The notes under the pieces were generated by a model that worked only from the letters and a program-made list of their open reading frames with translations, did no database searches and was not told the origin of the DNA. This document shows positions 8,532-63,330 of a stretch of DNA of 64,000 nt, in pieces. The stretch's first letter is position 1; each line of letters opens with the position of its first letter. This DNA comes from Candidatus Staskawiczbacteria bacterium (GTDB lineage Bacteria > Patescibacteriota > Minisyncoccia > Minisyncoccales > Staskawiczbacteraceae), in NCBI GenBank assembly GCA_041661545.1, contig JBAZUH010000001.1, positions 544,148 to 608,147 of the forward strand. The letters run 5' to 3'. The translations under genes were made by a program, and so were the position numbers.

Positions 8532-8607
8532 GCCCTCGTGGTGAAATCGGATATCACACTTGGCTTCGAACCAAGAATTCCGGGTTCGAGTCCTGGCGAG
8601 GGCACCA
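8532..8607 (+). tRNA. tRNA-Arg (anticodon TCG), CCA encoded
   Basis: GCCCTCG/CGAGGGC acceptor stem, anticodon stem CTTGG/CCAAG with loop CTTCGAA, T-arm CCGGGTTCGAGTCCTGG, 3' ACCA. Confidence 0.9.
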
Positions 8608-8615
8608 CAACAAAC

Positions 8616-8987
8616 ATGAATAAAAAAATACTTTTGTCGGTTATTATATTATCATTAGCCTTGACTCCATTATTAGCCATGGCAGTGGACGAGGGGCTAG
8701 TAAAATGTGGAAATGACGTTAATAATCCATGCGACTTAGATGATTTTATGACAATACTAGATGATATTTACACATTTATAGTTTACACAATAGCCGCTCC
8801 TCTAGCTGTTATTGCTATTATAATTGGTGGCGTATTAATGATGACTTCTGCAGGCAACCCCAATATGATGAGCCTAGGTAAAAAAGTTTTTTGGTCTGCT
8901 ATTATAGGACTAGTTTTAGCTTTTGGGGCAAAAGCCATTATTAATTTTGTTCTTGAAGTTGTCGGGTATAATAAGGAACCAATATAG
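8616..8987 (+). CDS. Free-standing T4SS-type (VirB2/TrbC-like) pilin-module protein
   Basis: MNKKILLSVIILSLALTPLLAMA signal peptide, then two TM helices separated by a short Gly/Lys loop (..IIIGGVLMMTSAGNPNMMSLGKKVFWSAIIGLVLAF..). The start was moved from 8538 because that extension overlaps tRNA-Arg. Confidence 0.6.
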   Translation: MNKKILLSVIILSLALTPLLAMAVDEGLVKCGNDVNNPCDLDDFMTILDDIYTFIVYTIAAPLAVIAIIIGGVLMMTSAGNPNMMSLGKKVFWSAIIGLVLAFGAKAIINFVLEVVGYNKEPI

Positions 8988-9008
8988 TAACCAAAATTAT
9001 AATCATAT

Positions 9009-9084
9009 GCCCCCGTAGCTCAATTGGTAGAGCAGTTCCCTCTTAAGGAATTGGTTCCGAGTTCGAGTCTCGGCAGGGGCACCA
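9009..9084 (+). tRNA. tRNA-Lys (anticodon CTT), CCA encoded
   Basis: GCCCCCGTAGCTCAATTGGTAGAGCAGTTCCCTCTTAAGGAATTGGTTCCGAGTTCGAGTCTCGGCAGGGGCACCA with anticodon loop CTCTTAA. One acceptor-stem mismatch. Confidence 0.88.
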
Positions 9085-13810: not shown

Positions 13811-14566
13811 TTATATGCCTGTATTTTGATTTTCTTGTGACTCAGTAAAGTTTCCATTTTCAAATTCAACCTCCTCACCCACTTGCGAAGACACACCTTT
13901 TTTTGGCACCTGCAATTGTTTTTGAAGATGGTTAATTTGAGATGATAACAATTGTTTTGTGTTTCTTGCATCGGTTATTATTTTTTCAATTAAACCTTGT
14001 AAGAACTTTTCTCTTTCTACTAATTCATTATCTTTGGCCTTATAATCAATAAGCAATGATTCATATTTCTTAATCCAGTCTTTTTTCTCAGCCCGGTCTT
14101 CTTTTAATATTTCTAAAAACTCTCGGTCAACGGTTATTTGATCGGGCGCATAAGCGGTGGGCTCGGCGCTTCTGCGATTTGGCTTAGGTTCTTCTGACCG
14201 CTTAAGCGGTTCTTCTAACTGACTAGATATTTCACTAGACTGTTCCGGTACCACCGCATAAGCGGTAGGCTCGGCGCTTAAGCGGTTTGGTTCAGGTTCA
14301 TCTGACCGCTTAAGCGCTTCTTCAGACCGCTTAAGCGGTACCGCATAAGCGGTTTCTTTTGCTATAGCTTCTAACTCTTTAACCCAAAAATCTTCTTTTA
14401 AAAGAATAACATTCCCCACTCCTTTGTCATACCTTTCAGTTAAAACTCCCTCTAATTTTTGTGGGTCTACCAATCTATACTTTCTAATTCTTCTTCTAAT
14501 CCTAACATCTGGAACTTCATATTTTTGAATAAATTCTTGTATTGTTAAAAATTCGTTATTATCCAT
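13811..14566 (-). CDS. HTH-like (excisionase/MerR-type N-terminus) protein with an internal tandem repeat and a C-terminal coiled coil
   Basis: 251 aa. N-terminus FLTIQEFIQKYEVPDVRIRRRIRKY. Two repeats of about 36 aa (..LKRS[DE]EP[EK]PNR.SAEPTAYA..). The CDS contains 4 perfect and 3 degenerate copies of the palindrome found upstream. Confidence 0.5.
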   Translation of the reverse strand: MDNNEFLTIQEFIQKYEVPDVRIRRRIRKYRLVDPQKLEGVLTERYDKGVGNVILLKEDFWVKELEAIAKETAYAVPLKRSEEALKRSDEPEPNRLSAEPTAYAVVPEQSSEISSQLEEPLKRSEEPKPNRRSAEPTAYAPDQITVDREFLEILKEDRAEKKDWIKKYESLLIDYKAKDNELVEREKFLQGLIEKIITDARNTKQLLSSQINHLQKQLQVPKKGVSSQVGEEVEFENGNFTESQENQNTGI

Positions 14567-16093: not shown

Positions 16094-17518
16094 TCACGGA
16101 ATGTCCGTAGATTTGGCTATCGCTTGGGCGGGGTTTTGAGCCTTCCATGCGCCCGAATCAGTAGAGCTGTAGACATATCCGCCCATGACCGTCGCAGTCA
16201 TACTGCGAAAGTCTACGGATGCGGACACGTCAGACCAATTCTGCTTGTCGGCAACCGGCTCCCAATCCACCCCGAAATTGCCAGAGGTGTAAAGCGAGCC
16301 TCCAGACTCTGCAGCCAAGAATCGACGACCATCGCCCGAACACTTAATGGCCACCCATTTCCGAACATTGTCGGTTAACCGTGGTTGCCACGTCTGCATA
16401 AAGTCAGTGGAGATGTAGATATATCCACCATTTACAGTGGCGCCCCAAAACTGGGCGTTATAATTGGTTGTTAGGTCCGTCCAATCGCGGGACTCGCCAA
16501 CGGGCTTCCATGTCTGGCCCCCGTTGTAGGACGCATAAAGCCAACTATTGGAGGCTGCTACCCCCCGAAATTGACCACCAAAATCCATCTCGCCAGCCAC
16601 CCAATTCGGGCCAGCAAACCCGGTCGTCTCCCAGCTATCCCCCCAATCATACGTCTGCCAGATGTATCCACCTGGATCAACGGCCATCAGAAGTTGGCCA
16701 TCATCAGAAGTTGCTACGGACCTCCACCGGATTTTCAGGTCGCCCTCATAGGGCAAGTCGTATGCTTTCCAGGTCTGACCATAGTCAGCGGACCCATATA
16801 ACTCTCCATCAAGGGTCCCTATAATCTGGTTTTGGCCATAATAGGACACGGCGACGCAGGAAGGTTTATCTATATCTACGGTCCGCCAAGTGCTCCCGCC
16901 ATCGGCGGAGACATAAACTGGCGCGTTGCCAGCGATAAGCGTCCTATATTTTCCGTCACCAGACATGGAAGCACCGTTCCATGCAAGACTGGGACTGCCC
17001 ACGGCAGGTGAGGGGGGATTGGGTGTGTTACCACCATCGCCACCACCACCATTGCCACCGCCAGGACCTCTGCTCCCATCTCCTCCACCAATGGGGCCGA
17101 AAGAATAAAATGGAACAGATTCCTTGGTCTTATGCCTGATTATGGGGCTCCAATTAGCATAAGCCGTTGGTGTCGTCGCAGGATTAGATGTTGTTGTGCG
17201 CGAACCAAAGTTGGTTCGTGCAATGCTCGCCTGCGGGGCAACAACCTCTGCTCGAGGAATATTCGTGCCAGCTCTCTTTAAACTGACTTGGCCTTCGTTG
17301 TGTCCACTGGATTTCAAATTCCAGGGCTTGTATTTGTTCGCGGTCAAGCCTTGACCCGACCTAAACAATTTCAACGACGGCCTTTCGGGCTCGCTGAGCC
17401 ACACTACAAAAAAGATCGGCACTAGCAGTGCCAGTAGAGTAGCGCCCAGTTTCTTGAGCCCTATCTTCTGCAAAACCGCCGTCGCGGTAGAAATCTTCTC
17501 AAGGCTTTTTGTGTTCAT
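16094..17518 (-). CDS. Membrane-anchored Asp-box (BNR) repeat beta-propeller protein, on a GC-rich island
   Basis: Seven SxDxGxTW-like boxes (SADGGSTW, SADYGQTW, TYDWGDSW, SYNGGQTW, STDFMQTW, TSGNFGVDW, STDSGAW). Gly/Pro linker and TM anchor. ATG at 17518 is preferred over the GTG at 17581 because AAGGAG sits 10 nt upstream. Confidence 0.7.
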   Translation of the reverse strand: MNTKSLEKISTATAVLQKIGLKKLGATLLALLVPIFFVVWLSEPERPSLKLFRSGQGLTANKYKPWNLKSSGHNEGQVSLKRAGTNIPRAEVVAPQASIARTNFGSRTTTSNPATTPTAYANWSPIIRHKTKESVPFYSFGPIGGGDGSRGPGGGNGGGGDGGNTPNPPSPAVGSPSLAWNGASMSGDGKYRTLIAGNAPVYVSADGGSTWRTVDIDKPSCVAVSYYGQNQIIGTLDGELYGSADYGQTWKAYDLPYEGDLKIRWRSVATSDDGQLLMAVDPGGYIWQTYDWGDSWETTGFAGPNWVAGEMDFGGQFRGVAASNSWLYASYNGGQTWKPVGESRDWTDLTTNYNAQFWGATVNGGYIYISTDFMQTWQPRLTDNVRKWVAIKCSGDGRRFLAAESGGSLYTSGNFGVDWEPVADKQNWSDVSASVDFRSMTATVMGGYVYSSTDSGAWKAQNPAQAIAKSTDIP

Positions 17519-17604
17519 GGCTGACTTTCTCCTTTCCAAAAAGTTTTCAATGCTAGAAGTGGTTGACAAAATGTCTTCCACGTTGCTTCTAGCGTGCTAC
17601 TTCA

Positions 17605-21289: not shown

Positions 21290-22468
21290 TTACAGGCCGT
21301 CCAAATCGTCCGGCCCCAACTCTATCGCTGGCGGAGGCGAACCTCCACCAGGCTGATTGCGTCTGTCACCACGACGATTCCCCCCGTCTCCCCGAGCCAA
21401 TGGCTGAAGAGCATTGCCGAGTTCGCGTGCCAACGTAACACCGGCTGCGAAGTTGGCCTCAATCGGTTGGCCACCGCTGGTGACATCAAACTTGGTGAAT
21501 CCGCGACCAGCGAGCGCCTGCGATCGTAGTTGCTCAAGCGCCTGTTTATGTTGAGCATATTCACCACTTCTTTTCAGCTTGGCAACGAGTTTCTTCATCG
21601 CCACCGAATCCGACGAGTCAACTCCCGCGAGCCTTGCTTCTTCGGTAATCCATTCTTGCATGGCAAGCTGGACCGGGCCAAAAACCCGCGCCTTTTCGCC
21701 TTCAGCCAACAATTGCTGTTTGCTTTTGGCCTCCAAGGCTTCCTGATATCCGGGCTGGTATCCCACATCTTCAACGATGACAGAATTTTCCAGAATCCGA
21801 AGACCCCAGTCATTTTCCATCGTCGTGAAAACAGGAAGCGATCCCTGATTAACCAGGTCTTGCCAAAGCTGGGCGCCATTACCCCTGGCGGCTTGAGCAC
21901 GCTCTTGTGAACCGCCACGAACCCATGCTCGCAACGTTGAATCCATCCGCCGTATAACCTGAGCGCTAACGTCGCGGGGTGCCACAAACAGCCATTTGTA
22001 CAGGTTGACGATTCTCATGACGGAAACGAATTTCACGTCAAGTGGAACGCTCTCAGGAGCTGCCGTTTCTGCTTTAGAGATCATGGGTTCAGGAGCGACG
22101 TTTCCGACGCGGACATGAATGCCCGCACCAAACATGTCGGCACTTCCATTCTGCTGAGCGTATCGAACGGCCGAGACAAACGGCCATAGATAAATCACCC
22201 AGCCCCCAAAACGGCACATAAACCATGACCCCTGGCCATAGCCGTCGGGGTAATCTCCCTCGACAACGTTGCCGTTTTCATCGAAGCCATGCCCCCTGAA
22301 ATTCATCCCTAGGTAGCAGAAGCTACCGAAGCTGAGAAAGGCAATGGCTGTGCCTTCTCGGATGATTGCCACCCTAATAATACGCAACGCCCAGAGGAGG
22401 AAGATTGTGAAAATCATCCACCAAAGGTGATCGCTCAGCCAATCGAACACTGAATATATCGCTTGCAT
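21290..22468 (-). CDS. Membrane-anchored SPFH/band-7-like protein, on a GC-rich island
   Basis: Start taken at MQAIYSVFDW (ATG at 22468). N-terminal TM. The segment IIREGTAIAF...VKFVSVMRIVNLYKWLFVAP.DV resembles an SPFH fold pattern. Coiled-coil and Gly/Arg-rich tail. Confidence 0.45.
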   Translation of the reverse strand: MQAIYSVFDWLSDHLWWMIFTIFLLWALRIIRVAIIREGTAIAFLSFGSFCYLGMNFRGHGFDENGNVVEGDYPDGYGQGSWFMCRFGGWVIYLWPFVSAVRYAQQNGSADMFGAGIHVRVGNVAPEPMISKAETAAPESVPLDVKFVSVMRIVNLYKWLFVAPRDVSAQVIRRMDSTLRAWVRGGSQERAQAARGNGAQLWQDLVNQGSLPVFTTMENDWGLRILENSVIVEDVGYQPGYQEALEAKSKQQLLAEGEKARVFGPVQLAMQEWITEEARLAGVDSSDSVAMKKLVAKLKRSGEYAQHKQALEQLRSQALAGRGFTKFDVTSGGQPIEANFAAGVTLARELGNALQPLARGDGGNRRGDRRNQPGGGSPPPAIELGPDDLDGL

Positions 22469-22609
22469 TTTGGTTGTTGGTTGTTGGTTGTGGTTGGTTG
22501 GTTTTGAACAGTCACTTAACGGTTGGCGCGAGAACACCTCGCTCCACACAGGAATTACCCTGCGTTCATAATGAAAACCGTGTTTGACAATGTTCTTTCA
22601 GATACATTT

Positions 22610-32100: not shown

Positions 32101-32128
32101 AAAAAGCCCCGCTATAGCGGGGCTTTTT
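32101..32128. terminator. Bidirectional terminator (T4SS-like operon / jag)
   Basis: AAAAAGCCCCGC-TATA-GCGGGGCTTTTT. Confidence 0.85.
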
Positions 32129-49698: not shown

Positions 49699-50613
49699 AT
49701 GGAAAAAAATCAGAGGTTAATTATTATAGATTCTAATGCATTGTTGCACAGGTCGTTTCATGCTTTGCCACCGCTAAAAACAAAATCAGGGCAGGAGACT
49801 GGGGCTGTTTATGGATATTTGCTTACACTTTTTAAGGCACTAACTGATTTATGTCCCTCCGGGACATCTCCCGAAGGGAGAAAACCTCTCTATATTGTTG
49901 CTTGTTTTGATACAAAAGGGGCAACATTTCGCCACGAAATGTATAAAGATTATAAAGTGCAAAGGCCAGCAACTCCTAGTGGAATTGTTTCACAAATTCC
50001 TGTGGCAAAAGAAGTTGTTGAAGCCTTGGGCATTCCTATTTTTGCTAAAGAGGGGGTAGAGGCCGATGATTTAATTGCTACTATTTGCACAAAAAATTCA
50101 GAATTAGAAATTTTTATTGTTTCTGGAGATATGGATAATACTCAACTAGTTAATGAAAAGATAAAAGTTTATACTTTGGGCAAAGGGATAAAAGATACAA
50201 TTATTTATGATATTAACAGGGTGCGAGAAAGGTTTGGAGTAGAGCCTTCGCAAATGGTAGATTTTAAAGCTTTAATGGGTGATGCTTCTGATAACATCCC
50301 AGGAGTTGAAGGTATTGGAAAAAAAACAGCAGCAGAAATAATACAAAAATATGGCAGTATAAAAAATCTTTATGAGGAGTTGGCCACAGACACAGCTGTT
50401 TTAAAACCAAAAGTAAAAGAAGCTTTAAAGCAAAACAAAGAATCTGCTTTAATGTCTCTTGAATTAGCACGAATGAAAGCAGATGTTGATATAGATTTTA
50501 AAATTGAAGATTGTAAATTTGGAAATTTTGACAAAAATAAAGTTGCGGAAGTTTTTAATAGTTTAGAATTTTATAGTCTCGTTGACCGCTTGTCACAGTT
50601 GGGCTATAATTAA
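49699..50613 (+). CDS. Stand-alone 5'-3' exonuclease (Pol I N-terminal/FEN-type)
   Basis: 304 aa with IIDSNALLHRSFHALP, GVEADDLIAT and H3TH motif GDASDNIPGVEGIGKKTA. Confidence 0.87.
   Translation: MEKNQRLIIIDSNALLHRSFHALPPLKTKSGQETGAVYGYLLTLFKALTDLCPSGTSPEGRKPLYIVACFDTKGATFRHEMYKDYKVQRPATPSGIVSQIPVAKEVVEALGIPIFAKEGVEADDLIATICTKNSELEIFIVSGDMDNTQLVNEKIKVYTLGKGIKDTIIYDINRVRERFGVEPSQMVDFKALMGDASDNIPGVEGIGKKTAAEIIQKYGSIKNLYEELATDTAVLKPKVKEALKQNKESALMSLELARMKADVDIDFKIEDCKFGNFDKNKVAEVFNSLEFYSLVDRLSQLGYN
49853..49881. repeat. GC-rich double hairpin insert in the exonuclease gene, in frame
   Basis: GTCCC-TCC-GGGAC A TCTCCC-GAA-GGGAGA, encoding LCPSGTSPEGRK between conserved blocks. Confidence 0.7.
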
Positions 50614-51255: not shown

Positions 51256-52167
51256 ATGCCAGAGCTACCCGAAGTAGAAACAACAGTGAAAGGTTTAAAT
51301 GCAAAGGTCCTTAATAGGACCTTTGTTTCTGTTTGGTCTGATTGGAAAAAGTTAGTTAAAAAACCGAAAGATTTTTTGCAATTTGAAAAACAAATAAAAA
51401 ATAAAAAAATTATAAAAATATGGCGTAGAGCCAAAAATATAATATTTGATTTGTCTGGAGGCCTCTCGCTTTTAGTGCATCAAAAAATGACGGGTCATAT
51501 GTTGGTGGGCAAGTGGTCCCGCCACAGCGGGATCCCGCCCGAGGCGGGAAGCATATGGAAACCAATAAAAGAAGGTCCGCTTAATGATCCATATAATAGG
51601 TTTTTGCATTTGATATTTTTTCTTGATAATAAAGAAATGATAGCTCTTTCAGATGCTAGAAAATTTGCAAAAGTTGAGTTATGGGAAAAAAAAGAATTAG
51701 AAAGCGAACTTAAAAAAATAGGGCCTGAGCCCTTGGAAAAATCTTTTACTTTTGAAAAATTTAAAGAAAATTTGTTATGGCAAAACCCGCCTTCGCCAAG
51801 GCTACGGCAGGGCACAGTAAAGCAGATTTTAATGGTGCCAGAAGTGATAGCTGGCATTGGAAATATTTATGCATCAGAAATTTTATGGTGGGCAAAAGTT
51901 CATCCCCAAAAAAGTGTTGCAAAGCTAAATGAAAAAGAGTTAAGGTTAATTTATAAAGCTATAAAAAGCGTTTTACAAAAAGCAGTTAAATTGGGTGGAG
52001 AAAGTTTCTCTGATTATAGAAAGCCAGATGGAACCAAAGGAGATTTTGATACAGAAAGAAGAGTTTATAAAAGAGAGGGGCAAAAGTGTGGCAGGTGTAG
52101 CGTAAAAATTAAAAGAATTAAATTTGGCGGTAGAAGCACCTTTTTCTGCCCCAAATGCCAATCATGA
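51256..52167 (+). CDS. mutM: Formamidopyrimidine-DNA glycosylase
   Basis: 303 aa with MPELPEVET, GIGNIYASE and zinc finger CGRC..CPKC. Confidence 0.92.
   Translation: MPELPEVETTVKGLNAKVLNRTFVSVWSDWKKLVKKPKDFLQFEKQIKNKKIIKIWRRAKNIIFDLSGGLSLLVHQKMTGHMLVGKWSRHSGIPPEAGSIWKPIKEGPLNDPYNRFLHLIFFLDNKEMIALSDARKFAKVELWEKKELESELKKIGPEPLEKSFTFEKFKENLLWQNPPSPRLRQGTVKQILMVPEVIAGIGNIYASEILWWAKVHPQKSVAKLNEKELRLIYKAIKSVLQKAVKLGGESFSDYRKPDGTKGDFDTERRVYKREGQKCGRCSVKIKRIKFGGRSTFFCPKCQS
51517..51549. repeat. GGATCC-core double-hairpin element (copy 2), in frame in mutM
   Basis: TCCCGCCACAGCGGGATCCCGCCCGAGGCGGGA, encoding SRHSGIPPEAG. Confidence 0.85.
51785..51819. repeat. ACCCGCCT...GGCAGGGCACAGTA element, in frame in mutM
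   Basis: ACCCGCCTTCGCCAAGGCTACGGCAGGGCACAGTA, encoding NPPSPRLRQGTV. Confidence 0.7.
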
Positions 52168-53114
52168 TTTATTTTATATACGGCGAAGATTCATACAGGT
52201 CAAAAAAGAAATTAGAAGAAATAGTTTTAAGTTACAAAGAAAAACATAAATCTGGGTTAAACTTAATTTATGTAGATACTCTTACCAACAGCTTTGGCGA
52301 TTTTTATAACAGTTTGAAAATTAATTCCATGTTTGCTGAAAAAAAATTAATAGTTTTGAGAAATTTATTTTTAACTAAGAGCGAATCAGTTTCTGGTTGG
52401 CAAGAAGATTTTTTAGAGAATATAAAAAAAATAGAAGAATTAAAAGACATAGTTGTTGTGTATGAAAGTAGTTTGCCAGATAAAAGAACAAAACTTTTTA
52501 AAGCTTTACAAAAAAATACCAAGTGCCAGGAATTTAACTTATTAACAGATGTTAATTTAAAAAAATGGATAGCTAGTGAGTTTTTATTACAAAAAGTAAA
52601 AATAAATAATGATGCAGTTGATTTGCTTGCCAGCTATATTGGGAGTGATTTGTGGCGAATGGCAAATGAAATAAATAAATTATCAAACTACAAAAAAGGA
52701 ACAATAGTATTAAAAGAAAATGTGGAACTATTAGTAAAGCCTAATATAGATAATGATATTTTTAAAACAATAGATGCCCTAGCTTCTAAAAATAAAAAAT
52801 TAGCCCTTTCTCTTTTGCATAAGCACATGGATGGGGGAGACTTTCCTTTATATTTATTATCTATGATTGCATATCAGTTTAGAAATCTTTTGATAATAAA
52901 AGATTTATCCGCTCAAGGTGGACCAGCCTCGGGTTGGCAAAAAAAATCTGGTTTGCACCCCTTTGTTATTCAAAAAAGTAGTTATTTGTGTAGTCAATTT
53001 TCTATGGTTGAATTGAAAAAAATTTACCAAAAAATTTTTCAAATAGATTTAAATATAAAAACAGGAAAAATTGAAGCAGAAACAGCTATAGACTTATTAA
53101 TTTCTGAAATCTAA
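52155..53114 (+). CDS. holA: DNA polymerase III delta subunit
   Basis: 319 aa. N-terminus IYFIYGEDSYRSKKKLEEI, with length and organisation typical of HolA. Confidence 0.75.
   Translation: MPIMIYFIYGEDSYRSKKKLEEIVLSYKEKHKSGLNLIYVDTLTNSFGDFYNSLKINSMFAEKKLIVLRNLFLTKSESVSGWQEDFLENIKKIEELKDIVVVYESSLPDKRTKLFKALQKNTKCQEFNLLTDVNLKKWIASEFLLQKVKINNDAVDLLASYIGSDLWRMANEINKLSNYKKGTIVLKENVELLVKPNIDNDIFKTIDALASKNKKLALSLLHKHMDGGDFPLYLLSMIAYQFRNLLIIKDLSAQGGPASGWQKKSGLHPFVIQKSSYLCSQFSMVELKKIYQKIFQIDLNIKTGKIEAETAIDLLISEI
52908..52937. repeat. GC-rich double hairpin insert in holA, in frame
   Basis: TCCGC-TCAAG-GTGGA CCAGCC-TCG-GGTTGG, encoding SAQGGPASGW. Confidence 0.55.
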
Positions 53115-53460: not shown

Positions 53461-55476
53461 TTATTTGTTATTCAATTTTTTTATTAAATCTCTTATCTCA
53501 GCTGCTCTTTCAAAATCTAAATTTTTTGCCGCTATTTTCATTTCTTTTTCTAAAAGTTTTTGGTCATGTATTGCAAAAAATTCTTCATTAATGCTTTCTT
53601 TATCTGAGTTTGCAGAAGAATCTTTAGAAAATTTCCAATCTCTTATGTTAGAAACAATTGTTGCAGGAGTTATATTATTTTTTTTATTATAATCTTCTTG
53701 TATTTTTCTTCTTCTGTTTATTTCTTTTATAGCATTTTTCATAGACAGAGTTTCTTTATCAGCATACAAAATAACTCGTCCATTTAAATGTCTAGCAGCC
53801 CTTCCCATAGTTTGTATTAATGTTGTTTCGTTTCTCAAAAATCCTTCTTTATCAGCATCCAAAATAGCCACTAAAGAAACTTCTGGTAAATCTATTCCTT
53901 CTCTTAGTAAATTAATTCCTACAAGTACATCATATTTGCCCTCTCTGAGATTTTTTAATATTTCGGGCCTCTCCATAGTTTTGATTTCAGAATGTAGGTA
54001 TTGAGTTTTTATCCCTTTTTCGGTTAAATAATCAGAGATTTCTTCAGCCAGTTTTTTTGTTAAGGTAACAACAATTGTTCGATGTTTTTTATCTACTTGT
54101 TTTTTTATTTCTTCTATTAGGTCTTTAATTTGGTTTTCGGTTTTTTTTATTTCTATAGATGGCTCTAAAAGTCCGGTAGGTCTTATTATTTGCTCAATAA
54201 TATGGCTATTAGCCTTTTGCTTTTCAAAAATAGCGGGGGTGGCCGATACATAAATTGTTTGTTTTTGTCTTTCTTCAAATTCTTTAAAATTTAAAGGTCT
54301 ATTATCAATGGCCGAGGGCAATCTAAACCCAAAATCAATTAGGGTTTGTTTTCTAATTCTGTCTTGTACTGACATGGCCCTAATTTGAGAAATAGAAATA
54401 TGTGACTCATCTATAAAAATTAATGACCCGCCAGGGGCCTGCTCTGAGCCTGCCTGCAGTGAGCTTGTCGAATCTGTCGAAGGGTTAAAATAGTTAAAGT
54501 AATCAACTAAAGAGAAAGGGGCTTGCCCGGGTTTTCTAAACTCCATATGGCTAGAATAATTTTCTATGCCCTGGCATCGGCCAGTTTCAGCCAACATTTC
54601 TAAATCGTAGTTTGTTCTTTGTTCTAATCTTTCTGCTTCTAAGTTTTTGCCTAATTTTTTAAGTTTTATTAGTTGGTTTTTTAATTCTGTTTTTATATTT
54701 TCAATTGCAATTTTAAATTTATCTTGAGGGGCTACCCAAAAAGTAGCGGGGAATAATGTAATTTTATCTCCCGATGATTGGTATTTTTTATCTAAACTTG
54801 GGGTGGACTCAGAAATTTTTTCTATTTTGTTTCCATTAAATTCAATGCGAAATATTTTTTCTCCTGTAACTATATATATTTCAACCATATCTCCTCTAAC
54901 GCGAAAAGTGCCCGGCTTAAAATCAATATCATTTCTTTGATATTGCAAGCCTGTAAGTAAAATCAAAAAATCTTTTCTTGTAATTTTTTCATTTACTTTA
55001 ATTTCTAAAGAAGTGCGTCCATAGTTTTCTGGAGAACCAATATTATAAATACAAGAGACCGAAGCAACTACTATAACATCTTTTCTTGCTATAACATCTT
55101 GAACAGCTGCATGGCGCAACCTATCTATTTCTTCATTAATTTTTGCGTCTTTTTCTATATATGTATCTGAATGCGGTATATATGCTTCTGGTTGATAATA
55201 GTCATAATAAGAAACAAAATAATGAACTGCATTGTTAGGAAAAAATTCTTTAAACTCTTGATATAGTTGAGCAGCCAAAGTTTTATTTGGAGAAATTATT
55301 AGGGTTGGTTTTTGTATTTTTTCAATAACATTTGCTAAAGTAAAAGTTTTTCCCGATCCCGTTACGCCCAAAAGCACCTGGTCTTTTATGCCAGATTCTA
55401 AATTATTGGTCAGTTGTTTTATAGCATTTGGCTGATCTCCTGTGGGTTTAAATTTTGATTTTAGTTTAAATTTCAT
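53461..55476 (-). CDS. uvrB: Excinuclease ABC subunit B
   Basis: 671 aa with GVTGSGKTF, FIDESH, helicase motifs and a C-terminal UVR domain (LDFERAAEIRD). Confidence 0.96.
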   Translation of the reverse strand: MKFKLKSKFKPTGDQPNAIKQLTNNLESGIKDQVLLGVTGSGKTFTLANVIEKIQKPTLIISPNKTLAAQLYQEFKEFFPNNAVHYFVSYYDYYQPEAYIPHSDTYIEKDAKINEEIDRLRHAAVQDVIARKDVIVVASVSCIYNIGSPENYGRTSLEIKVNEKITRKDFLILLTGLQYQRNDIDFKPGTFRVRGDMVEIYIVTGEKIFRIEFNGNKIEKISESTPSLDKKYQSSGDKITLFPATFWVAPQDKFKIAIENIKTELKNQLIKLKKLGKNLEAERLEQRTNYDLEMLAETGRCQGIENYSSHMEFRKPGQAPFSLVDYFNYFNPSTDSTSSLQAGSEQAPGGSLIFIDESHISISQIRAMSVQDRIRKQTLIDFGFRLPSAIDNRPLNFKEFEERQKQTIYVSATPAIFEKQKANSHIIEQIIRPTGLLEPSIEIKKTENQIKDLIEEIKKQVDKKHRTIVVTLTKKLAEEISDYLTEKGIKTQYLHSEIKTMERPEILKNLREGKYDVLVGINLLREGIDLPEVSLVAILDADKEGFLRNETTLIQTMGRAARHLNGRVILYADKETLSMKNAIKEINRRRKIQEDYNKKNNITPATIVSNIRDWKFSKDSSANSDKESINEEFFAIHDQKLLEKEMKIAAKNLDFERAAEIRDLIKKLNNK
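54426..54485. repeat. GC-rich insert of about 60 nt in uvrB, in frame
   Basis: ACCCGCCAGGGGCCTGCTCTGAGCCTGCCTGCAGTGAGCTTGTCGAATCTGTCGAAGGGT. It encodes NPSTDSTSSLQAGSEQAPGG immediately before the DESH box, where E. coli UvrB (from memory) has only ..DYLPADGLLVVDESH. Confidence 0.7.
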
Positions 55477-55498: not shown

Positions 55499-56092
55499 AT
55501 GATAGCATTTTTAGAGGGAAAAATTATATTAAAAAAGGAGAAGTTTGTGATTGTTGAAGTGGCCGGCATTGGCTACAAGGTTTTTTTAAACCGCCAAGCC
55601 CTAATAACTTTACCCGCCTCCGCTCCAGAAGAGCTTCGGCAGGGCAAGCCAGAAATTAATTCTGTAAAACTCTTTATATACCATGAGACAAAAGAAGACA
55701 AGTCTGATTTGTATGGATTTCTTACTTATGAGGAATTTGAATTTTTTGAGATATTAATGGACATTAGAGGAGTGGGGCCAAGGTCAGCATTAGATATTTC
55801 AGCTTTAGGTTCTTTAGACAAAATAAAAGATAGAATTTTAAAACAAGACGAAAAAATATTTGAGGGCATTCCAGGAATTGGTTCAAAAAAGGCAATGACT
55901 ATAATTTTAGAGCTTACAGGTAAAATAAACATACTCGGTCAGAAAAAAAGTTCTGGCGACGAAGCAGAAAGCGCTTTGGTTCAGCTTGGGTTTTCAAAGC
56001 AACAAGCCAAAGATGCTTTGAGTCGTGTGCCCGCCTCTATAAAAGATTCAGAAGAGCGCATAAAATTAGCTTTAAAAAATTTAGGCAAATAA
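55499..56092 (+). CDS. ruvA: Holliday junction DNA helicase subunit RuvA
   Basis: 197 aa with VEVAGIGYKV and HhH motifs IRGVGPRSAL and IPGIGSKKA. Confidence 0.9.
   Translation: MIAFLEGKIILKKEKFVIVEVAGIGYKVFLNRQALITLPASAPEELRQGKPEINSVKLFIYHETKEDKSDLYGFLTYEEFEFFEILMDIRGVGPRSALDISALGSLDKIKDRILKQDEKIFEGIPGIGSKKAMTIILELTGKINILGQKKSSGDEAESALVQLGFSKQQAKDALSRVPASIKDSEERIKLALKNLGK
55612..55650. repeat. ACCCGCCT...GGCAGGGCA element, in frame in ruvA
   Basis: ACCCGCCTCCGCTCCAGAAGAGCTTCGGCAGGGCAAGCC, encoding PASAPEELRQGKP in the OB-domain loop. Confidence 0.7.
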
Positions 56093-56525: not shown

Positions 56526-57812
56526 ATGAGCGTTAAAGAAATAATTCACCCGATTAAATACCGCGAAGCGTTGATTTCGTTTTTAACGAAATCATTTAAC
56601 CGGGTAAAAAAATTTATACCGAAATTTTTGATAAGAATTTATCATTATAAATTAGCTTTGTTGGGAGCTGTGGTTTTTGGTTTTCCTGGCCTTAATAAAA
56701 ATATAAAAATAATAGGGGTAACAGGCACCAGTGGGAAATCAACTACAGTAGATTTTGTAACCAGAATTTTTGACGAGGCAAATGAAAAGGTGGCTTCGGT
56801 GTCTTCTATTAGATTTAAAGTTGCAAATAAAGAATGGGAGAATAAATATAAAATGACAATGCCTGGCCGTTTTGTAATTCAAAAACTATTGAGCCAGGCA
56901 AAAAAAGCAGGTTGTAAATATGTTGTTTTAGAGGTTACATCAGAGGGAATAAGACAATTTCGTCATAAATTTATAAATTTTGATTGTGTGGTTTTTACTA
57001 ACTTAACACCCGAACATATTGAAAGTCATGGAGGGTTTGAAAATTATAAAAAAGAAAAATTAAAATTATTTAAAGAAAATAAAAATATACATATTATAAA
57101 TATAGATGACAAAAATTCAAAAGAATTTTTGGATATTCCAGCTAAACAAAAAATTGAATTTTCTATCAAAGATGCAGAAAATATAAAGTTTGATTCCAAC
57201 TTAATTAGTGGGTTTAATATTTATAATGCTTTATCTGCTATTTCTGTTGCAAGAGTTTATGGGATTAGTTTAGATGTTTGTAAAAAAGCTTTAGAAAAAA
57301 TAAAAGTTATTCCAGGAAGAATGGAAGTGGTGTTAGAATTTCCTATTAAAGTTATTGTTGATTATGCGCATACCCCCGACCAACTTGAAGCAGTTTATAA
57401 AACATTTTCCGCCAAAGGCGGATCCGCCTTTGGCGGAAGCCTCGTTTGTGTTTTAGGTTCTTGTGGTGGGGGAAGAGACAAATGGAAAAGGCCTGTTTTA
57501 GGAGAAATAGCAAAAAAATATTGTAAAGAAATTATAATTACCAACGAAGACCCATATGACGAAGATCCACTTTCTATTATGAAAGAAATAGAAAGTGCCC
57601 TGTTGTATGACGGGGCTAATTCTAAGCACCATATGATTTTAGACAGGAAAGAAGCCATAGAAAAGGCAATAAAGCTTGCTAAACCTGGAGATGTGGTTAT
57701 AATTACAGGAAAGGGGTCTGAACCTTGGATGTGTCTAGAAAATGGACGCAAAATACCATGGAACGATAAGCAAATAGCACAAGATGCTGTTAAAAAATTT
57801 TTTACCCCGTAA
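56526..57812 (+). CDS. Mur ligase family protein (MurE-like)
   Basis: 428 aa with IGVTGTSGKSTT, DYAHTPDQLE, GGGRDKWKRP and GKGSE. Confidence 0.8.
   Translation: MSVKEIIHPIKYREALISFLTKSFNRVKKFIPKFLIRIYHYKLALLGAVVFGFPGLNKNIKIIGVTGTSGKSTTVDFVTRIFDEANEKVASVSSIRFKVANKEWENKYKMTMPGRFVIQKLLSQAKKAGCKYVVLEVTSEGIRQFRHKFINFDCVVFTNLTPEHIESHGGFENYKKEKLKLFKENKNIHIINIDDKNSKEFLDIPAKQKIEFSIKDAENIKFDSNLISGFNIYNALSAISVARVYGISLDVCKKALEKIKVIPGRMEVVLEFPIKVIVDYAHTPDQLEAVYKTFSAKGGSAFGGSLVCVLGSCGGGRDKWKRPVLGEIAKKYCKEIIITNEDPYDEDPLSIMKEIESALLYDGANSKHHMILDRKEAIEKAIKLAKPGDVVIITGKGSEPWMCLENGRKIPWNDKQIAQDAVKKFFTP
56548..56605. repeat. AT-rich three-way-junction element B2 (within the annotated 5' end of the Mur ligase gene)
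   Basis: ACCCGATTAAAT ... ATTTAACCGGGT closing stem (1 mismatch) enclosing CGC-GAA-GCG and GATTTCG-TTTTTAA-CGAAATC. Confidence 0.55.
57417..57448. repeat. Perfect 32-nt palindrome with GGATCC core (copy 4, variant), in frame in the Mur ligase gene
   Basis: TTCCGCCAAAGGCGGATCCGCCTTTGGCGGAA, encoding SAKGGSAFGG between DYAHTPD and the GGGRDK block. Confidence 0.85.
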
Positions 57813-59764: not shown

Positions 59765-59936
59765 GTTATGAGGGGGTGCGAGATTCATCTCAAGGACATA
59801 ATATTTTGTAACGAAAGAGGAACAAGTATATACCTAAATTCATTGTCCGAATTAGGCTCGAGAAAAATCCAATATCGTTGCAAATTATTTACCCCCTCCA
59901 CAAAGTCCGCTCCGACGCACGTCGGAGCGGTTTTTG
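59765..59936 (+). ncRNA. Candidate small RNA of about 170 nt, family unknown
   Basis: Bounded by the promoter above and an intrinsic terminator (CCGCTCCGAC-GCAC-GTCGGAGCGG plus TTTTT, 59907-59935). Long-range pairing GAGGGGGT/ACCCCCTC and hairpin CCTAA(A)TT/AATTAGG. Confidence 0.4.
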
Positions 59937-61126: not shown

Positions 61127-62098
61127 ATGATAGAAAATATAAAAGAAGAAATTGAAGATAAAATTATAGATTATATTAATTCTAGCGTAACTGGTAGATT
61201 GATAGTTTTTAAGCCCGATAAAAAGGGGATGGATGACTATTTAGTTGTAGAAAGAAGAGGAAAATATAAAGAAGATAAAATATATCTTGAAATTAATAGT
61301 TTAGTTTTGCCAGCCCAAAATAAAAATTTTATAAAAGATTTTTCGCAAGAAAAGTTTAAAGCAGACAAAAACTTTTATTTAATTTTTGCTTACTTTGACG
61401 AAGTTACACAAAAAATAAATGATTATATATGGATTATTCCATCATTAAAGTTTCAAGATATAGCGGAGGTTGTAAAACATTCCAACAACAAGAAGTCTCT
61501 AAGGTTTGAGTCTTCTTCTAATTTTAAAGATAAAAATAAATATTCTGAATTCTTAATAAACATAAAAGATTTAGGAGATATATTATTAGGGGCTTTAAAA
61601 GACAAAAAGCAAGCTAAATTTCAGGCAGTTGATTTTGATGGTAAAAGTTTGATAAATTTAGAAAATTTAAAAGAATTTTTATGTAATGCTCGTCAAAATA
61701 CTTATGCAGCAAACTCATCGGGAATAGATAATCCAAGGCTTTTAGAATCTAAACAGCTAGAATTTCAAAAGGGGGAATATTTTTATAGGGATGTTTATTT
61801 TACTGGTAAAACAAAATTTATAGGCCAAGAAATTATTTATCAAGATTTAAAGCCTATTTGGGGTATGAATTATATAGGAAAAGCTATTGGCAAATTAGAA
61901 ACAAATTTTTTAAAAGAATCTTTAATGGAGTTATCTGATAAATGTCGTCTTGGACAAGAATGTGAATATAATAAAAGAGAATATAAATATAAAGACAAGG
62001 GGGTTGGAGATGTTAGTGAATTTTCTGGTAAAGAGGAAATTCTCTTAAATGAAAAAAGTATTTATAAATTAGATTATCAGGGCGGTTTAATCTCATGA
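61127..62098 (+). CDS. Two-domain protein: unassigned N-terminal domain plus DUF5680-like C-terminal domain
   Basis: 323 aa. The C-terminal part (FLCNARQNTYAA.., PIWGMNYIG, FLKESL, FSGKEEI, YQGGLI) matches my recollection of DUF5680. ATGA overlap with the next gene. Confidence 0.45.
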   Translation: MIENIKEEIEDKIIDYINSSVTGRLIVFKPDKKGMDDYLVVERRGKYKEDKIYLEINSLVLPAQNKNFIKDFSQEKFKADKNFYLIFAYFDEVTQKINDYIWIIPSLKFQDIAEVVKHSNNKKSLRFESSSNFKDKNKYSEFLINIKDLGDILLGALKDKKQAKFQAVDFDGKSLINLENLKEFLCNARQNTYAANSSGIDNPRLLESKQLEFQKGEYFYRDVYFTGKTKFIGQEIIYQDLKPIWGMNYIGKAIGKLETNFLKESLMELSDKCRLGQECEYNKREYKYKDKGVGDVSEFSGKEEILLNEKSIYKLDYQGGLIS

Positions 62099-63330
62099 AG
62101 TTTATAGCAGATTTTCATATACACTCAAAATATTCTAGGGCAGTGTCTCCTTTAATGAATTTAGAAAATTTAGCTAAGTGGGCAGAAATAAAAGGAGTAA
62201 AAGTTTTAGGCACAGGTGATTTTACTCACCCTAAATGGCTTGGCGAAATAAAAAAACAACTAAGCCCCGCAGAGCGGGGTCTTTTTTCCCGCCACAGCGG
62301 GATCCCGCCAAAGACGGGAAAGCTTGGCAGTAAAACTCGTTTTATTCTTACAACTGAGATAAGTTGTATATATAAAAAACTAGGAAAAGTTAGAAAAATT
62401 CATATTATTGTTTTTGCTCCATCAATAGCCACGGTAGAAAAAATAAACTTAGCATTATCTAAAATTGGCAATTTACATTCAGACGGTAGGCCAATTTTGG
62501 GGCTAGATGCAAAAGAGTTAGTAAAGATTGTTTTAAATATAGATAAAAATTGTTTAATAGTGCCAGCTCATGCCTGGACACCATGGTTTTCTATTTTTGG
62601 CTCAAAGTCAGGATTTAATTCTTTAGAGGAGTGTTTTGAAGAATATACAAAATATATTTATGCAATTGAAACTGGGTTGTGTTCAAATCCTGCTATGAAT
62701 TGGAGAATATCTAAACTAGATAAAATTACTTTAATTTCTAACAGTGATGCACACTCTCTTGCTAAAATTGGACGGGAAGCAAATGTTTTTGATACGGAGC
62801 TGAGTTATAAGGGGATTGTTGAGGCCATTAAGTTTCCAGAAAAAAAGTTTTTATATACTATAGAATTTTTTCCTGAAGAAGGTAAATATCATTATGATGG
62901 TCATCGTAATTGTGGTATAAGTTTAGCTCCTCAACAATCTAAAAAGAATAATAATATATGTCCTAAATGCAACAAACCCTTGATAATAGGGGTTTTAAAT
63001 AGGGTAGAAGAATTGGCTGATAGGCCAGAAGGATTTTTGCCTAAAAAAGGAATTCCATTTAAAAGTTTAATTCCTTTAAATGAAATAATAGCTGAATCAA
63101 TTGGCGTTTCAACAGCATCAAAAAAAGTTATAAAATATTATGATAATTTAATAAAAAATTTAGGACCAGAGTTAGAAATATTATTAGAATCAACAGAAAA
63201 AGATATAAAAGAAAAATCTTTACCAGAAATTGCCAAAGGGGTTATAAAAATGCGCAAGGGGCGCGTTTTTATTGAGCCAGGATATGACGGTGTTTATGGA
63301 AAAATTAATATTTTATTTAATAATGGTTGA
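62095..63330 (+). CDS. PHP-domain endonuclease Q-like protein
   Basis: 411 aa with FIADFHIHSKYSRA, PAHAWTPWF, SNSDAHS and Zn-ribbon CPKCNKP. Confidence 0.72.
   Translation: MKFIADFHIHSKYSRAVSPLMNLENLAKWAEIKGVKVLGTGDFTHPKWLGEIKKQLSPAERGLFSRHSGIPPKTGKLGSKTRFILTTEISCIYKKLGKVRKIHIIVFAPSIATVEKINLALSKIGNLHSDGRPILGLDAKELVKIVLNIDKNCLIVPAHAWTPWFSIFGSKSGFNSLEECFEEYTKYIYAIETGLCSNPAMNWRISKLDKITLISNSDAHSLAKIGREANVFDTELSYKGIVEAIKFPEKKFLYTIEFFPEEGKYHYDGHRNCGISLAPQQSKKNNNICPKCNKPLIIGVLNRVEELADRPEGFLPKKGIPFKSLIPLNEIIAESIGVSTASKKVIKYYDNLIKNLGPELEILLESTEKDIKEKSLPEIAKGVIKMRKGRVFIEPGYDGVYGKINILFNNG
62287..62319. repeat. GGATCC-core double-hairpin element (copy 3), in frame in the EndoQ-like gene
   Basis: TCCCGCCACAGCGGGATCCCGCCAAAGACGGGA, encoding SRHSGIPPKTG. 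The first 24 nt are identical to copy 2. Confidence 0.85.

Follow-up and report, generated by a model that had tools for sequence, protein, structure and literature searches.

Several conserved genes of a Candidatus Staskawiczbacteria genome (Candidate Phyla Radiation, CPR, or Patescibacteria) carry nearly the same GC-rich palindrome in frame. The question this locus raises is what that sequence is, and how it came to lie within genes for DprA, MutM/Fpg, an EndoQ homologue and a MurE-like ligase. The window, by which we mean the whole stretch of DNA analysed, spans 64,000 nucleotides (nt) and has a G+C content of 33.6%. Its copies of the element are probably best explained as a short (~33 nt), GC-rich, non-autonomous mobile palindrome, translated as a loop of the host protein and mobilised via a module linked to GIY-YIG nucleases. 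An earlier note on the window had likened the behaviour of the element to that of Rickettsia palindromic elements (RPEs), and in its core this reading is supported, as a repeated double-hairpin (DH) element is found in frame and patchily distributed among orthologs. A link to tRNA-associated GIY-YIG nuclease cassettes, not visible from the window alone, corrects that first reading further.

Three near-identical copies lie in dprA, mutM and the EndoQ-like gene, where the earlier note had placed them and with the sequences and peptides it quoted (Table 1). Each has the form TCCCGCC-loop-GCGGGA followed flush by TCCCGCC-loop-GGCGGGA. The motif recurs far above expectation: the 12-mer GCGGGATCCCGC occurs exactly three times in the window against 0.01 expected, and a longer 24-nt pattern gives four matches (three sites, one on both strands) against none in 100 dinucleotide shuffles. 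Folded as single-stranded DNA, these canonical copies form two flush hairpins (-11.7 to -16.4 kcal/mol, z -3.9 to -4.7), and the G+C content of the 33-34-nt flush double hairpins is 0.70-0.79. The EndoQ copy has one mismatch in its second stem, and T/A flanks contribute an outer stem to the dprA copy. The fourth copy, TTCCGCCAAAGGCGGATCCGCCTTTGGCGGAA, lies in the MurE-like gene and represents a TCCGCC subfamily; it is a perfect 32-nt palindrome translated as quoted, although the position given for it, 57417, is its middle and not its start. Two adjacent GC hairpins had been claimed for every copy, which is true of the canonical three, but as a single strand the Mur-ligase copy prefers one 14-bp hairpin (-18.4 kcal/mol, z -6.9). 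A further GC-rich flush double hairpin in a 5'-3' exonuclease gene (feet TCCC...GGGA, -9.2 kcal/mol, z -3.0) is a probable fifth family member, judged from its form.

The sequence GGATCC, once taken for the core of the element, is not its functional core. Relatives carry GGGACCCC, GAGGATCCAC and similar sequences at the centre, and GGATCC is a by-product that appears because the foot ...GGGA of one hairpin abuts the next foot, TCCC.... The element contains no stop codon in any of its six frames and has a length of about 3n. All host open reading frames (ORFs) are intact, namely those of DprA, MutM/Fpg, the EndoQ homologue (E = 6e-47 to PfuEndoQ) and the MurE-like ligase.

All four copies are lineage-specific, in-frame insertions into loops, and no target-site duplication is visible in empty-site comparisons at the dprA, mutM, EndoQ and MurE-like sites. 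Most sequences in the ortholog alignments lack the segments, which are neither ancestral nor conserved across phyla there, and this bears out the earlier proposal of insertion into conserved genes. For example, dprA shows a clean gain of 33 nt, or 11 amino acids (aa), relative to the empty site GAAATTTTC / CAAAATTGT of its closest ortholog (L184, 80% identity). The notion that each whole segment was inserted stands for DprA; in MutM, MurE and EndoQ the net gain is only seven, seven and eight residues, because a few resident codons were replaced. An 11-residue insert occupies exactly the same site in 11-12 of 120 DprA orthologs. Its carriers are scattered over a neighbour-joining tree, requiring at least eight changes, and their nearest neighbours mostly lack it, a distribution that suggests recurrent gain at one position.

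In MutM, the segment is missing from 31 of 33 aligned orthologs, and the other two (P0002 and P0027) have it at the matching position. In the empty allele (L004) the order is TGG, 18 nt and TGG, whereas the filled allele reads TGG, the 33-nt element, AGCATA and TGG; a decayed copy stands at the same site in L003. Compared with the copy in L002, whose ortholog is 75% identical, the element matches at 32 of 33 positions (97%) against 77% for the remaining gene. Third codon positions are 91% identical within the element against 61% elsewhere, and the same codon is used for all ten shared residues of the element against 52-65% elsewhere. These contrasts point either to constraint on the nucleotide sequence itself or to a recent arrival. 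In an AlphaFold model of MutM, the element forms the tip of a beta-hairpin (strands 87-91 and 99-103), and model confidence is lowered there.

For EndoQ, alignment with the Pyrococcus furiosus enzyme (5zb8) opens a gap of 11-12 residues exactly at the element. Relative to the syntenic relative L181 there is an 8-aa gain with flanks that are otherwise collinear, including an upstream hairpin that reads SPAERG; the latter, kept in L181, is not an insertion relative to PfuEndoQ. The MurE-like palindrome is unique among 120 orthologs, and unrelated 7-residue inserts occupy its position in other lineages. The divergent exonuclease element is a 10-aa gain relative to L181.

Table 1. Double-hairpin copies and other features of the window (a slash separates the two parts of a sequence; peptides are read in the host frame).
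Feature	Position (nt)	Host gene or setting	Sequence	Peptide
DH copy 1	912-945 (34 nt)	dprA (141-1070, minus)	TCCCGCCGCAGCGGGA / TCCCGCCTATCGGCGGGA	PADRRDPAAAG
DH copy 2	51517-51549 (33 nt)	mutM (51256-52167, plus)	TCCCGCCACAGCGGGA / TCCCGCCCGAGGCGGGA	SRHSGIPPEAG
DH copy 3	62287-62319 (33 nt)	EndoQ homologue (62095-63330, plus)	TCCCGCCACAGCGGGA / TCCCGCCAAAGACGGGA	SRHSGIPPKTG
DH, TCCGCC subfamily	57407-57438	MurE-like ligase gene (56526-57812, plus)	TTCCGCCAAAGGCGGA / TCCGCCTTTGGCGGAA	SAKGGSAFGG
Probable divergent DH	49851-49881	5'-3' exonuclease gene (49699-50613, plus)	TGTCCCTCCGGGACA / TCTCCCGAAGGGAGA	CPSGTSPEGR
GC hairpin	62265-62279	EndoQ homologue, 7 nt upstream of DH copy 3	CCCCGCAGAGCGGGG	SPAERG
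GC-rich segment, other family	51784-51817	mutM		
GC-rich segment, other family	54423-54464	uvrB (minus)		
GC-rich segment, other family	55613-55645	ruvA		
GC-rich segment, other family	52909-52938	holA		
TrbC/VirB2-like pilin gene	8538-8987	between two tRNA genes (8532-9081)		
Strong hairpin, 10-bp stem	59907-59930	intergenic	CCGCTCCGACGCACGTCGGAGCGG	
Strong hairpin	32101-32128	intergenic	AAAAAGCCCCGCTATAGCGGGGCTTTTT	
14-nt palindrome, four copies	14197-14353	ORF 13811-14566 (minus)	ACCGC(T/A)TAAGCGGT	
GC-rich ORF	16094-17581	minus strand		
GC-rich ORF	21290-22549	minus strand		

The family extends far beyond this genome. A scan of 185,579 species genomes with the pattern TCCCGCC-N3-5-GCGGGATCCCGCC, as exact 20-nt matches, returned at least 120 stretches, the stems of the scanned copies being invariant by the way they were selected. 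Among the matches listed, to which the host and copy counts of this paragraph refer, hosts are low- to mid-GC metagenome-assembled genomes, some of them matched at several loci. They belong to many CPR classes, Omnitrophota, WOR-3, Planctomycetota, Bacteroidota, Armatimonadota, Ignavibacteria, Bdellovibrionales and uncultured Gammaproteobacteria; the few matches in genomes of 67-74% G+C fit chance. Type IX secretion sorting domains are encoded at the Bacteroidota loci, which shows that non-CPR hosts are genuine. A CPR-specific element is therefore not what we see: the family is present in many phyla, and outside CPR it is chiefly intergenic. Of the low-GC copies, 35 of 96 (36%) lie inside long ORFs, and such copies are commoner in CPR than elsewhere. 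They occur in both orientations and all three phases, and thus in all six frames, the most used phase being SRxSGIPPxAG (19 of 35).

Copies vary in form around conserved feet. The second hairpin can have a loop of ~23 nt, and some copies end in GGCGGTGA. Members of the TCCGCC subfamily occur alongside the main type in L075, L081 and L124, and in L140 one stands upstream of a GIY-YIG gene. Flanks follow the consensus AAWYTT(G/T) before the element and AAAWTTY after it, that is, T-rich on the 5' side and A-rich on the 3' side. First-hairpin loops among 47 unique short elements, where the first stem has 6 bp, are mostly C-N-C-A (CACA, CGCA, CTCA, CCCA). The feet TCCCGC/GCGGGA and CCCGA/TCGGG correspond to helices of common tRNA acceptor and T stems in swapped order, which may hint at a tRNA-derived origin or be a coincidence. 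DH copies also stand within ~7-nt tandem arrays at 13 loci (L090, L097, L006, L032, L122, L039, L025, L057, L080, L081, L033, L095 and L120), the array units being genome-specific, such as CCGAAAT, TAATTTC, AGTTCTC, CAAGTTT and AAGATTA. In L081, two elements of different subfamilies lie 16 nt apart, each flanked by an identical ~7-nt unit. Repeated target duplication, slippage provoked by the hairpins, or a preference for such arrays are possible sources of this arrangement.

Other identities were considered and set aside. A phage origin is at odds with the mere four matches in 2.9 million viral contigs, and an assembly artefact with the same sequence in an independent Logan assembly (L001) and related copies in many independent projects. 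CRISPR repeats would form arrays with spacers, which are absent; the three copies seen together in L092 stem from a tRNA fragment that is duplicated in tandem as a 130-nt unit. When the window and ten element-bearing loci were compared with Rfam, only tRNAs came up. Intrinsic terminators do not fit either, with no T run after the hairpins (the 3' flank is A-rich) and with the window copies lying within ORFs.

A lead to a possible mobilising enzyme comes from tRNA genes. In several tRNA fragments the element is cleanly inserted with boundaries exactly at TCCCG...CGGGA and without duplication. The sites are the D loop of tRNA-Tyr (L092), the anticodon stem of tRNA-Thr (L092 and L069), the anticodon loop of tRNA-Ser (L075), the D loop of tRNA-Arg (L094), the D stem of tRNA-Arg, here with a longer hairpin pair (L008), and the T loop of a 3' fragment (L005). 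Except in L005, the host fragment is an incomplete duplicate of a tRNA gene's 5' part and directly precedes the intact gene. Hairpins and intact tRNA flank an ORF of ~80 aa in L092, L069 and L008. It matches PF01541 (GIY-YIG) with E = 1e-16, and among solved structures the UPF0213 proteins 1ywl and 1zg2 come closest to it, with SLX1 structure-specific endonucleases next.

As an unbiased test of this link, 52 metagenome loci were retrieved by the GIY-YIG protein alone. In most of ~37 low-GC loci, a same-strand tRNA follows the ORF at a distance of 5-400 nt. In ~22 of 38 protein-selected loci the order is a tRNA 5' fragment, a flush double hairpin, 5-10 more tRNA nucleotides, the ORF and the intact tRNA; 12-50 nt separate the hairpins from the ATG. 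These cassette hairpins have the general form TCCCGA-stem-loop-stem-TCGAGGA followed by TCC(A/T)CGA-stem-loop-stem-TCGGGA, with conserved feet and covarying inner stems (such as ATTCCGC/GCGGAAT or ATTTTCC/GGAAAAT). Since the cassettes include a minimal TCCCGCC type (L130) and a TCCGCC type (L140), the window elements can be regarded as the minimal form of the nuclease-cassette module. Among the matches listed, a tRNA gene is found within 300 nt for 10 of 107 copies, where 3.2 would be expected; thus, most copies are solitary, and the tRNA association is real but concerns a minority.

Two further details of these loci deserve mention. In L092 (2880-3180), a 130-nt unit, in which a double hairpin joins a tRNA-Thr 3' half to a degenerate 5' half, is tandemly duplicated beside an intact tRNA-Thr(GGU), and the GIY-YIG ORF of this locus (660-899) contains an in-frame TGA. 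In the window, the ORF between two tRNA genes, a candidate for the nuclease by its position, was rejected as such: it encodes a TrbC/VirB2-like pilin that occupies the place held by the GIY-YIG gene in other genomes, and its listed GTG start overlaps the first tRNA.

The element appears to have expanded within the lineage of the window. Against the 21-kb syntenic region of L181, where protein identity to the window is 75-83%, six GC-rich double hairpins in the window face none. Of the 15 internal indels of at least 3 aa between the two, 11 are segments with a G+C content of 0.48-0.70, compared with 0.34 genome-wide; they occur in either genome, several fold stably, and they include the divergent exonuclease element, inserts in UvrB, RuvA and HolA, and a second MutM site.

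Other families of GC-rich inserts are present in the neighbouring repair genes (Table 1), with NPPSPRLRQG, TDSTSSLQAGSEQAPG and PEELRQGKPEI given as their peptides. The tabulated mutM, uvrB and ruvA segments of this kind are insertions relative to L181, while the holA segment was seen as a GC-rich island only, its coordinates not being among the L181 indels. An insert of the NPPSPRLRQG type is present in about half of MutM orthologs. More generally, alignments of MutM, DprA and MurE orthologs show several hot spots with inserts rich in Pro, Arg, Gly, Ser and Ala that differ in sequence. DprA has one such hot spot, five residues upstream of its DH site; it is filled in ~13 of 120 orthologs with inserts of a different GC type (PALSEAEG, PASRQGG or PVLSKAEGTCPEPAEGTCPEPAEG) and is empty in the window.

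How might such an element spread? On the explanation favoured here, it would land in AT-rich DNA without target duplication, and stop-free, frame-preserving insertions into tolerant surface loops would persist, translated as an 11-residue loop rich in Pro, Gly, Arg, Ser and Ala. Genic insertions would survive because the six frames are stop-free and the length is about 3n, and many surviving CPR copies would be genic because CPR genomes have almost no intergenic space. Longer double-hairpin versions form the 5' module of a cassette encoding the 80-aa UPF0213/SLX1-type GIY-YIG nuclease beside tRNA genes. The nuclease would make a break at branched or cruciform DNA, with a predicted cut ~8 nt past the hairpins, where the tRNA-like sequence stops, and with the hairpin module as the cis element it recognises, and copies would spread by repair or gene conversion; the resident codons replaced in MutM, MurE and EndoQ fit templated insertion during break repair. 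Boundaries between lineages and between phyla would be crossed by way of conserved targets, tRNA genes among them, and of DNA uptake. The dprA empty site and the tRNA arms suggested that insertion takes place at the apex of hairpins already present; we do not claim this, because complementarity between flanks exceeds that at random positions only weakly (2.22 against 1.53 pairs of six) and does not exceed that of shuffled partners.

A bolder extension of this explanation is conceivable, if rather doubtful: the double hairpin and its bare UPF0213/SLX1-type nuclease might form an unrecognised class of structure-guided mobile element that homes into tRNA genes and sheds 33-nt modules, with mitochondrial double-hairpin elements (DHEs) as its organellar branch. 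The nuclease would then recognise the branched DNA of the hairpins or of tRNA-gene cruciforms, and the shed modules would colonise genomes and remodel protein loops in CPR bacteria.

Several observations weigh against mobilisation through the nuclease module. Neither a GIY-YIG gene nor another candidate nuclease gene was found in the 64-kb window, which was the only part of this genome searched, so the window copies would be non-autonomous. GIY-YIG enzymes cut DNA but do not join it, and spread to the non-homologous dprA and mutM would therefore need an extra step of repair or templated insertion. The association with the cassette could be regulatory, in that the hairpins serve for 5' stabilisation or processing, and the same-site recurrence in DprA could reflect allele exchange or repeated loss in place of repeated insertion. 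Mobility is here inferred from sequence comparison, not from experiment or from polymorphism within a population. Finally, many intergenic copies elsewhere sit in arrays of ~7-nt direct repeats, and another enzyme that duplicates its target on transposition could be responsible.

These arrays keep alive an unlikely rival, in which a MITE-like (miniature inverted-repeat transposable element) or REP-like (repetitive extragenic palindromic) element is moved by a classical transposase, be it RAYT (REP-associated tyrosine transposase)/IS200-IS605 Y1 or a DDE enzyme with ~7-bp duplications, and the GIY-YIG cassette is a mere neighbour or landing site. The inverted-repeat ends TCCCGCC/GGCGGGA would suit it, as would the direct repeats of a locally specific 7-nt unit that flank many intergenic copies, sometimes as arrays; the longest direct repeat between flanks averages 4.09 nt, compared with 3.22 nt with shuffled partners. 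However, target duplication is lacking at the dprA, mutM, EndoQ and MurE-like sites and at the six tRNA fragments, the flank consensus is TT(G/T)...AAA with no GTAG or CGTC tag, and the repeat arrays keep an unbroken phase through the element, in line with its insertion into an array already there. An all-against-all BLAST of 1,476 flanking ORFs likewise found no large gene or transposase that recurs. It is also improbable that the hairpins are a structural signal selected by the host (a protein-binding site, an RNA processing or stability signal, or a recombination or uptake signal) whose coding copies are tolerated. Nucleotide conservation above coding constraint, conserved feet with covarying inner stems and the fixed place 12-50 nt upstream of the GIY-YIG start codon argue for such a signal, and the enrichment of window host genes for DNA repair recalls the bias of uptake sequences, but that region of the window is a repair-gene cluster anyway. 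A selected signal is also hard to square with patchiness at orthologous sites, where the closest relatives lack the element, with the use of both orientations and all frames, with 4-5 copies per 64 kb, a density that uptake sequences far exceed, or with the absence of an Rfam match and of the uridine run that a terminator requires behind its hairpins.

The remaining rivals dispense with mobility or with the translated loop. Palindromes could be made in place by template switching or hairpin-primed repair and converge on GC-rich sequence, and the perfect palindromes (the Mur-ligase copy, L025 and L096), the few resident codons lost upon insertion and the many unrelated GC-rich hairpin inserts at the same hot spots of orthologs are compatible with this. 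Exact identity over 20-23 nt between copies in different genes and phyla, and inserted sequence that does not derive from the flanks, make such independent local origin very improbable. Alternatively, the insert could act at the RNA level, as a mini-intron or a segment bypassed in translation, leaving a protein without it. There is a precedent in the byp elements of yeast-like mitochondria, GC-rich inserts bypassed by the ribosome, and the hairpins are very stable. Yet all 35 genic copies among the matches listed keep one open frame throughout, and elements of 30, 31, 32, 34, 35, 44 and 50 nt would shift the frame if excised at the hairpin boundaries, which argues against precise removal from RNA; no ribozyme or intron family matches either, and we regard this last possibility as scarcely credible.

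If mobilisation through the nuclease module is correct, a 33-nt mobile element crosses phyla and writes loops of 7-11 residues into MutM, DprA, EndoQ, MurE and probably other proteins, and part of the protein-length variation and of the GC-rich islands of CPR genomes would be explained. Alignment, gene calling and phylogenomics of CPR proteins can go astray because of such inserts. It would also provide a candidate enzyme for hairpin elements of long-unknown mechanism (mitochondrial DHEs, GC clusters and RPEs), and a role for the widespread, uncharacterised UPF0213/YhbQ-like GIY-YIG proteins that adjoin tRNA genes.

The window holds other structured or compositionally distinct sequences (Table 1). 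Of the two strong intergenic hairpins, AAAAAGCCCCGCTATAGCGGGGCTTTTT resembles a bidirectional terminator between convergent genes. The four 14-nt palindromes, two of them adjacent, lie within a repeated PLKRSEE...PNRxSAEPTAYAV protein motif of an ORF without a Pfam family. The two GC-rich minus-strand ORFs, at 43-47% G+C against 33.6% for the genome, may have been horizontally acquired, and one has a weak Sortilin-Vps10 (BNR-like) match.

Among known systems, assignment to REP/RAYT, terminators, CRISPR or an Rfam family fails on at least one defining feature each. REPs depend on a Y1 transposase (RAYT). Like REPs and REPINs (REP doublets forming hairpins), the present element is a short GC-rich palindrome, often paired and with many copies per genome. 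REPs are extragenic and bear a GTAG or CGTC tag (PMC3733652). In contrast, the present element carries neither tag, 36% of the copies among the matches listed lie within long ORFs, and no recurrent RAYT-like neighbour was found in the flanks of the copies, the part of each genome covered. For MITEs the observations are mixed: the ends are inverted and there is no duplication at known empty alleles, but ~7-nt direct repeats surround many intergenic copies. RPEs, of ~100-150 bp and confined to Rickettsia and close relatives, add an in-frame surface peptide while the host protein is kept, and we know of neither a mobilising enzyme nor a linked nuclease cassette for them. The present palindrome likewise lies in frame in conserved genes, leaves the host ORF intact and is patchy among orthologs. 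It differs in its host, a CPR bacterium of the Staskawiczbacteria, and in its length of 32-34 nt, RPEs being several times longer and not built of two flush GC hairpins.

Yeast mitochondrial G+C clusters occur in frame in var1, persist at the RNA level and are regarded as mobile, and they are thought to transpose at the DNA level like DNA transposons (PMC2800124). The present element is similarly GC-rich, palindromic and optional in AT-rich DNA, but its sequence is different and no target duplication is seen at the known empty alleles here. Free-standing GIY-YIG homing cassettes offer another parallel, as phage T4 SegB is a GIY-YIG homing endonuclease gene within a tRNA gene cluster (PMC2330249). 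Here, too, a small GIY-YIG gene lies among tRNA genes, and the partial duplicate of the neighbouring tRNA gene is consistent with break-and-repair insertion; the GIY-YIG/DH cassette is a putative homing unit. Unlike SegB-type cassettes, it is chromosomal, carries a double-hairpin module and encodes a bare 80-aa UPF0213/SLX1-type catalytic domain without a DNA-binding domain.

No description in bacteria of such an element, or of a GIY-YIG/tRNA/double-hairpin cassette, was found in the literature, with subscription journals mostly uncovered, and an earlier description may exist elsewhere. By description, and not by sequence, the closest match in form and behaviour appears to be the mitochondrial DHE. 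PMC10085805 and PMC2800124, drawing on Paquin et al. 2000, place these elements in Allomyces, other chytrids and Schizosaccharomyces octosporus/osmophilus. In these accounts they are ~35 nt long with more than 75% GC, consist of two adjacent hairpins and are dispersed in multiple copies through an AT-rich genome, either in intergenic regions or at non-critical positions of rRNA and protein genes without flanking duplication. They are also given there as near-identical across species, which is read as horizontal spread, and as retained in transcripts. The window copies share the two flush hairpins, the length (33-34 nt), the high G+C content (0.70-0.79) within an AT-rich host and the lack of target duplication at sites with known empty alleles. 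They differ in residing in bacteria (free-living or episymbiotic, of several phyla) and not in organelles, in lying in frame in protein genes in about one-third of the copies among the matches listed, and in having defined TCCCG...CGGGA feet and a UPF0213/SLX1-like GIY-YIG cassette at tRNA genes. What emerges may be a bacterial, cross-phylum counterpart in form, a double-hairpin element that comes with a testable lead to its mobilising enzyme.

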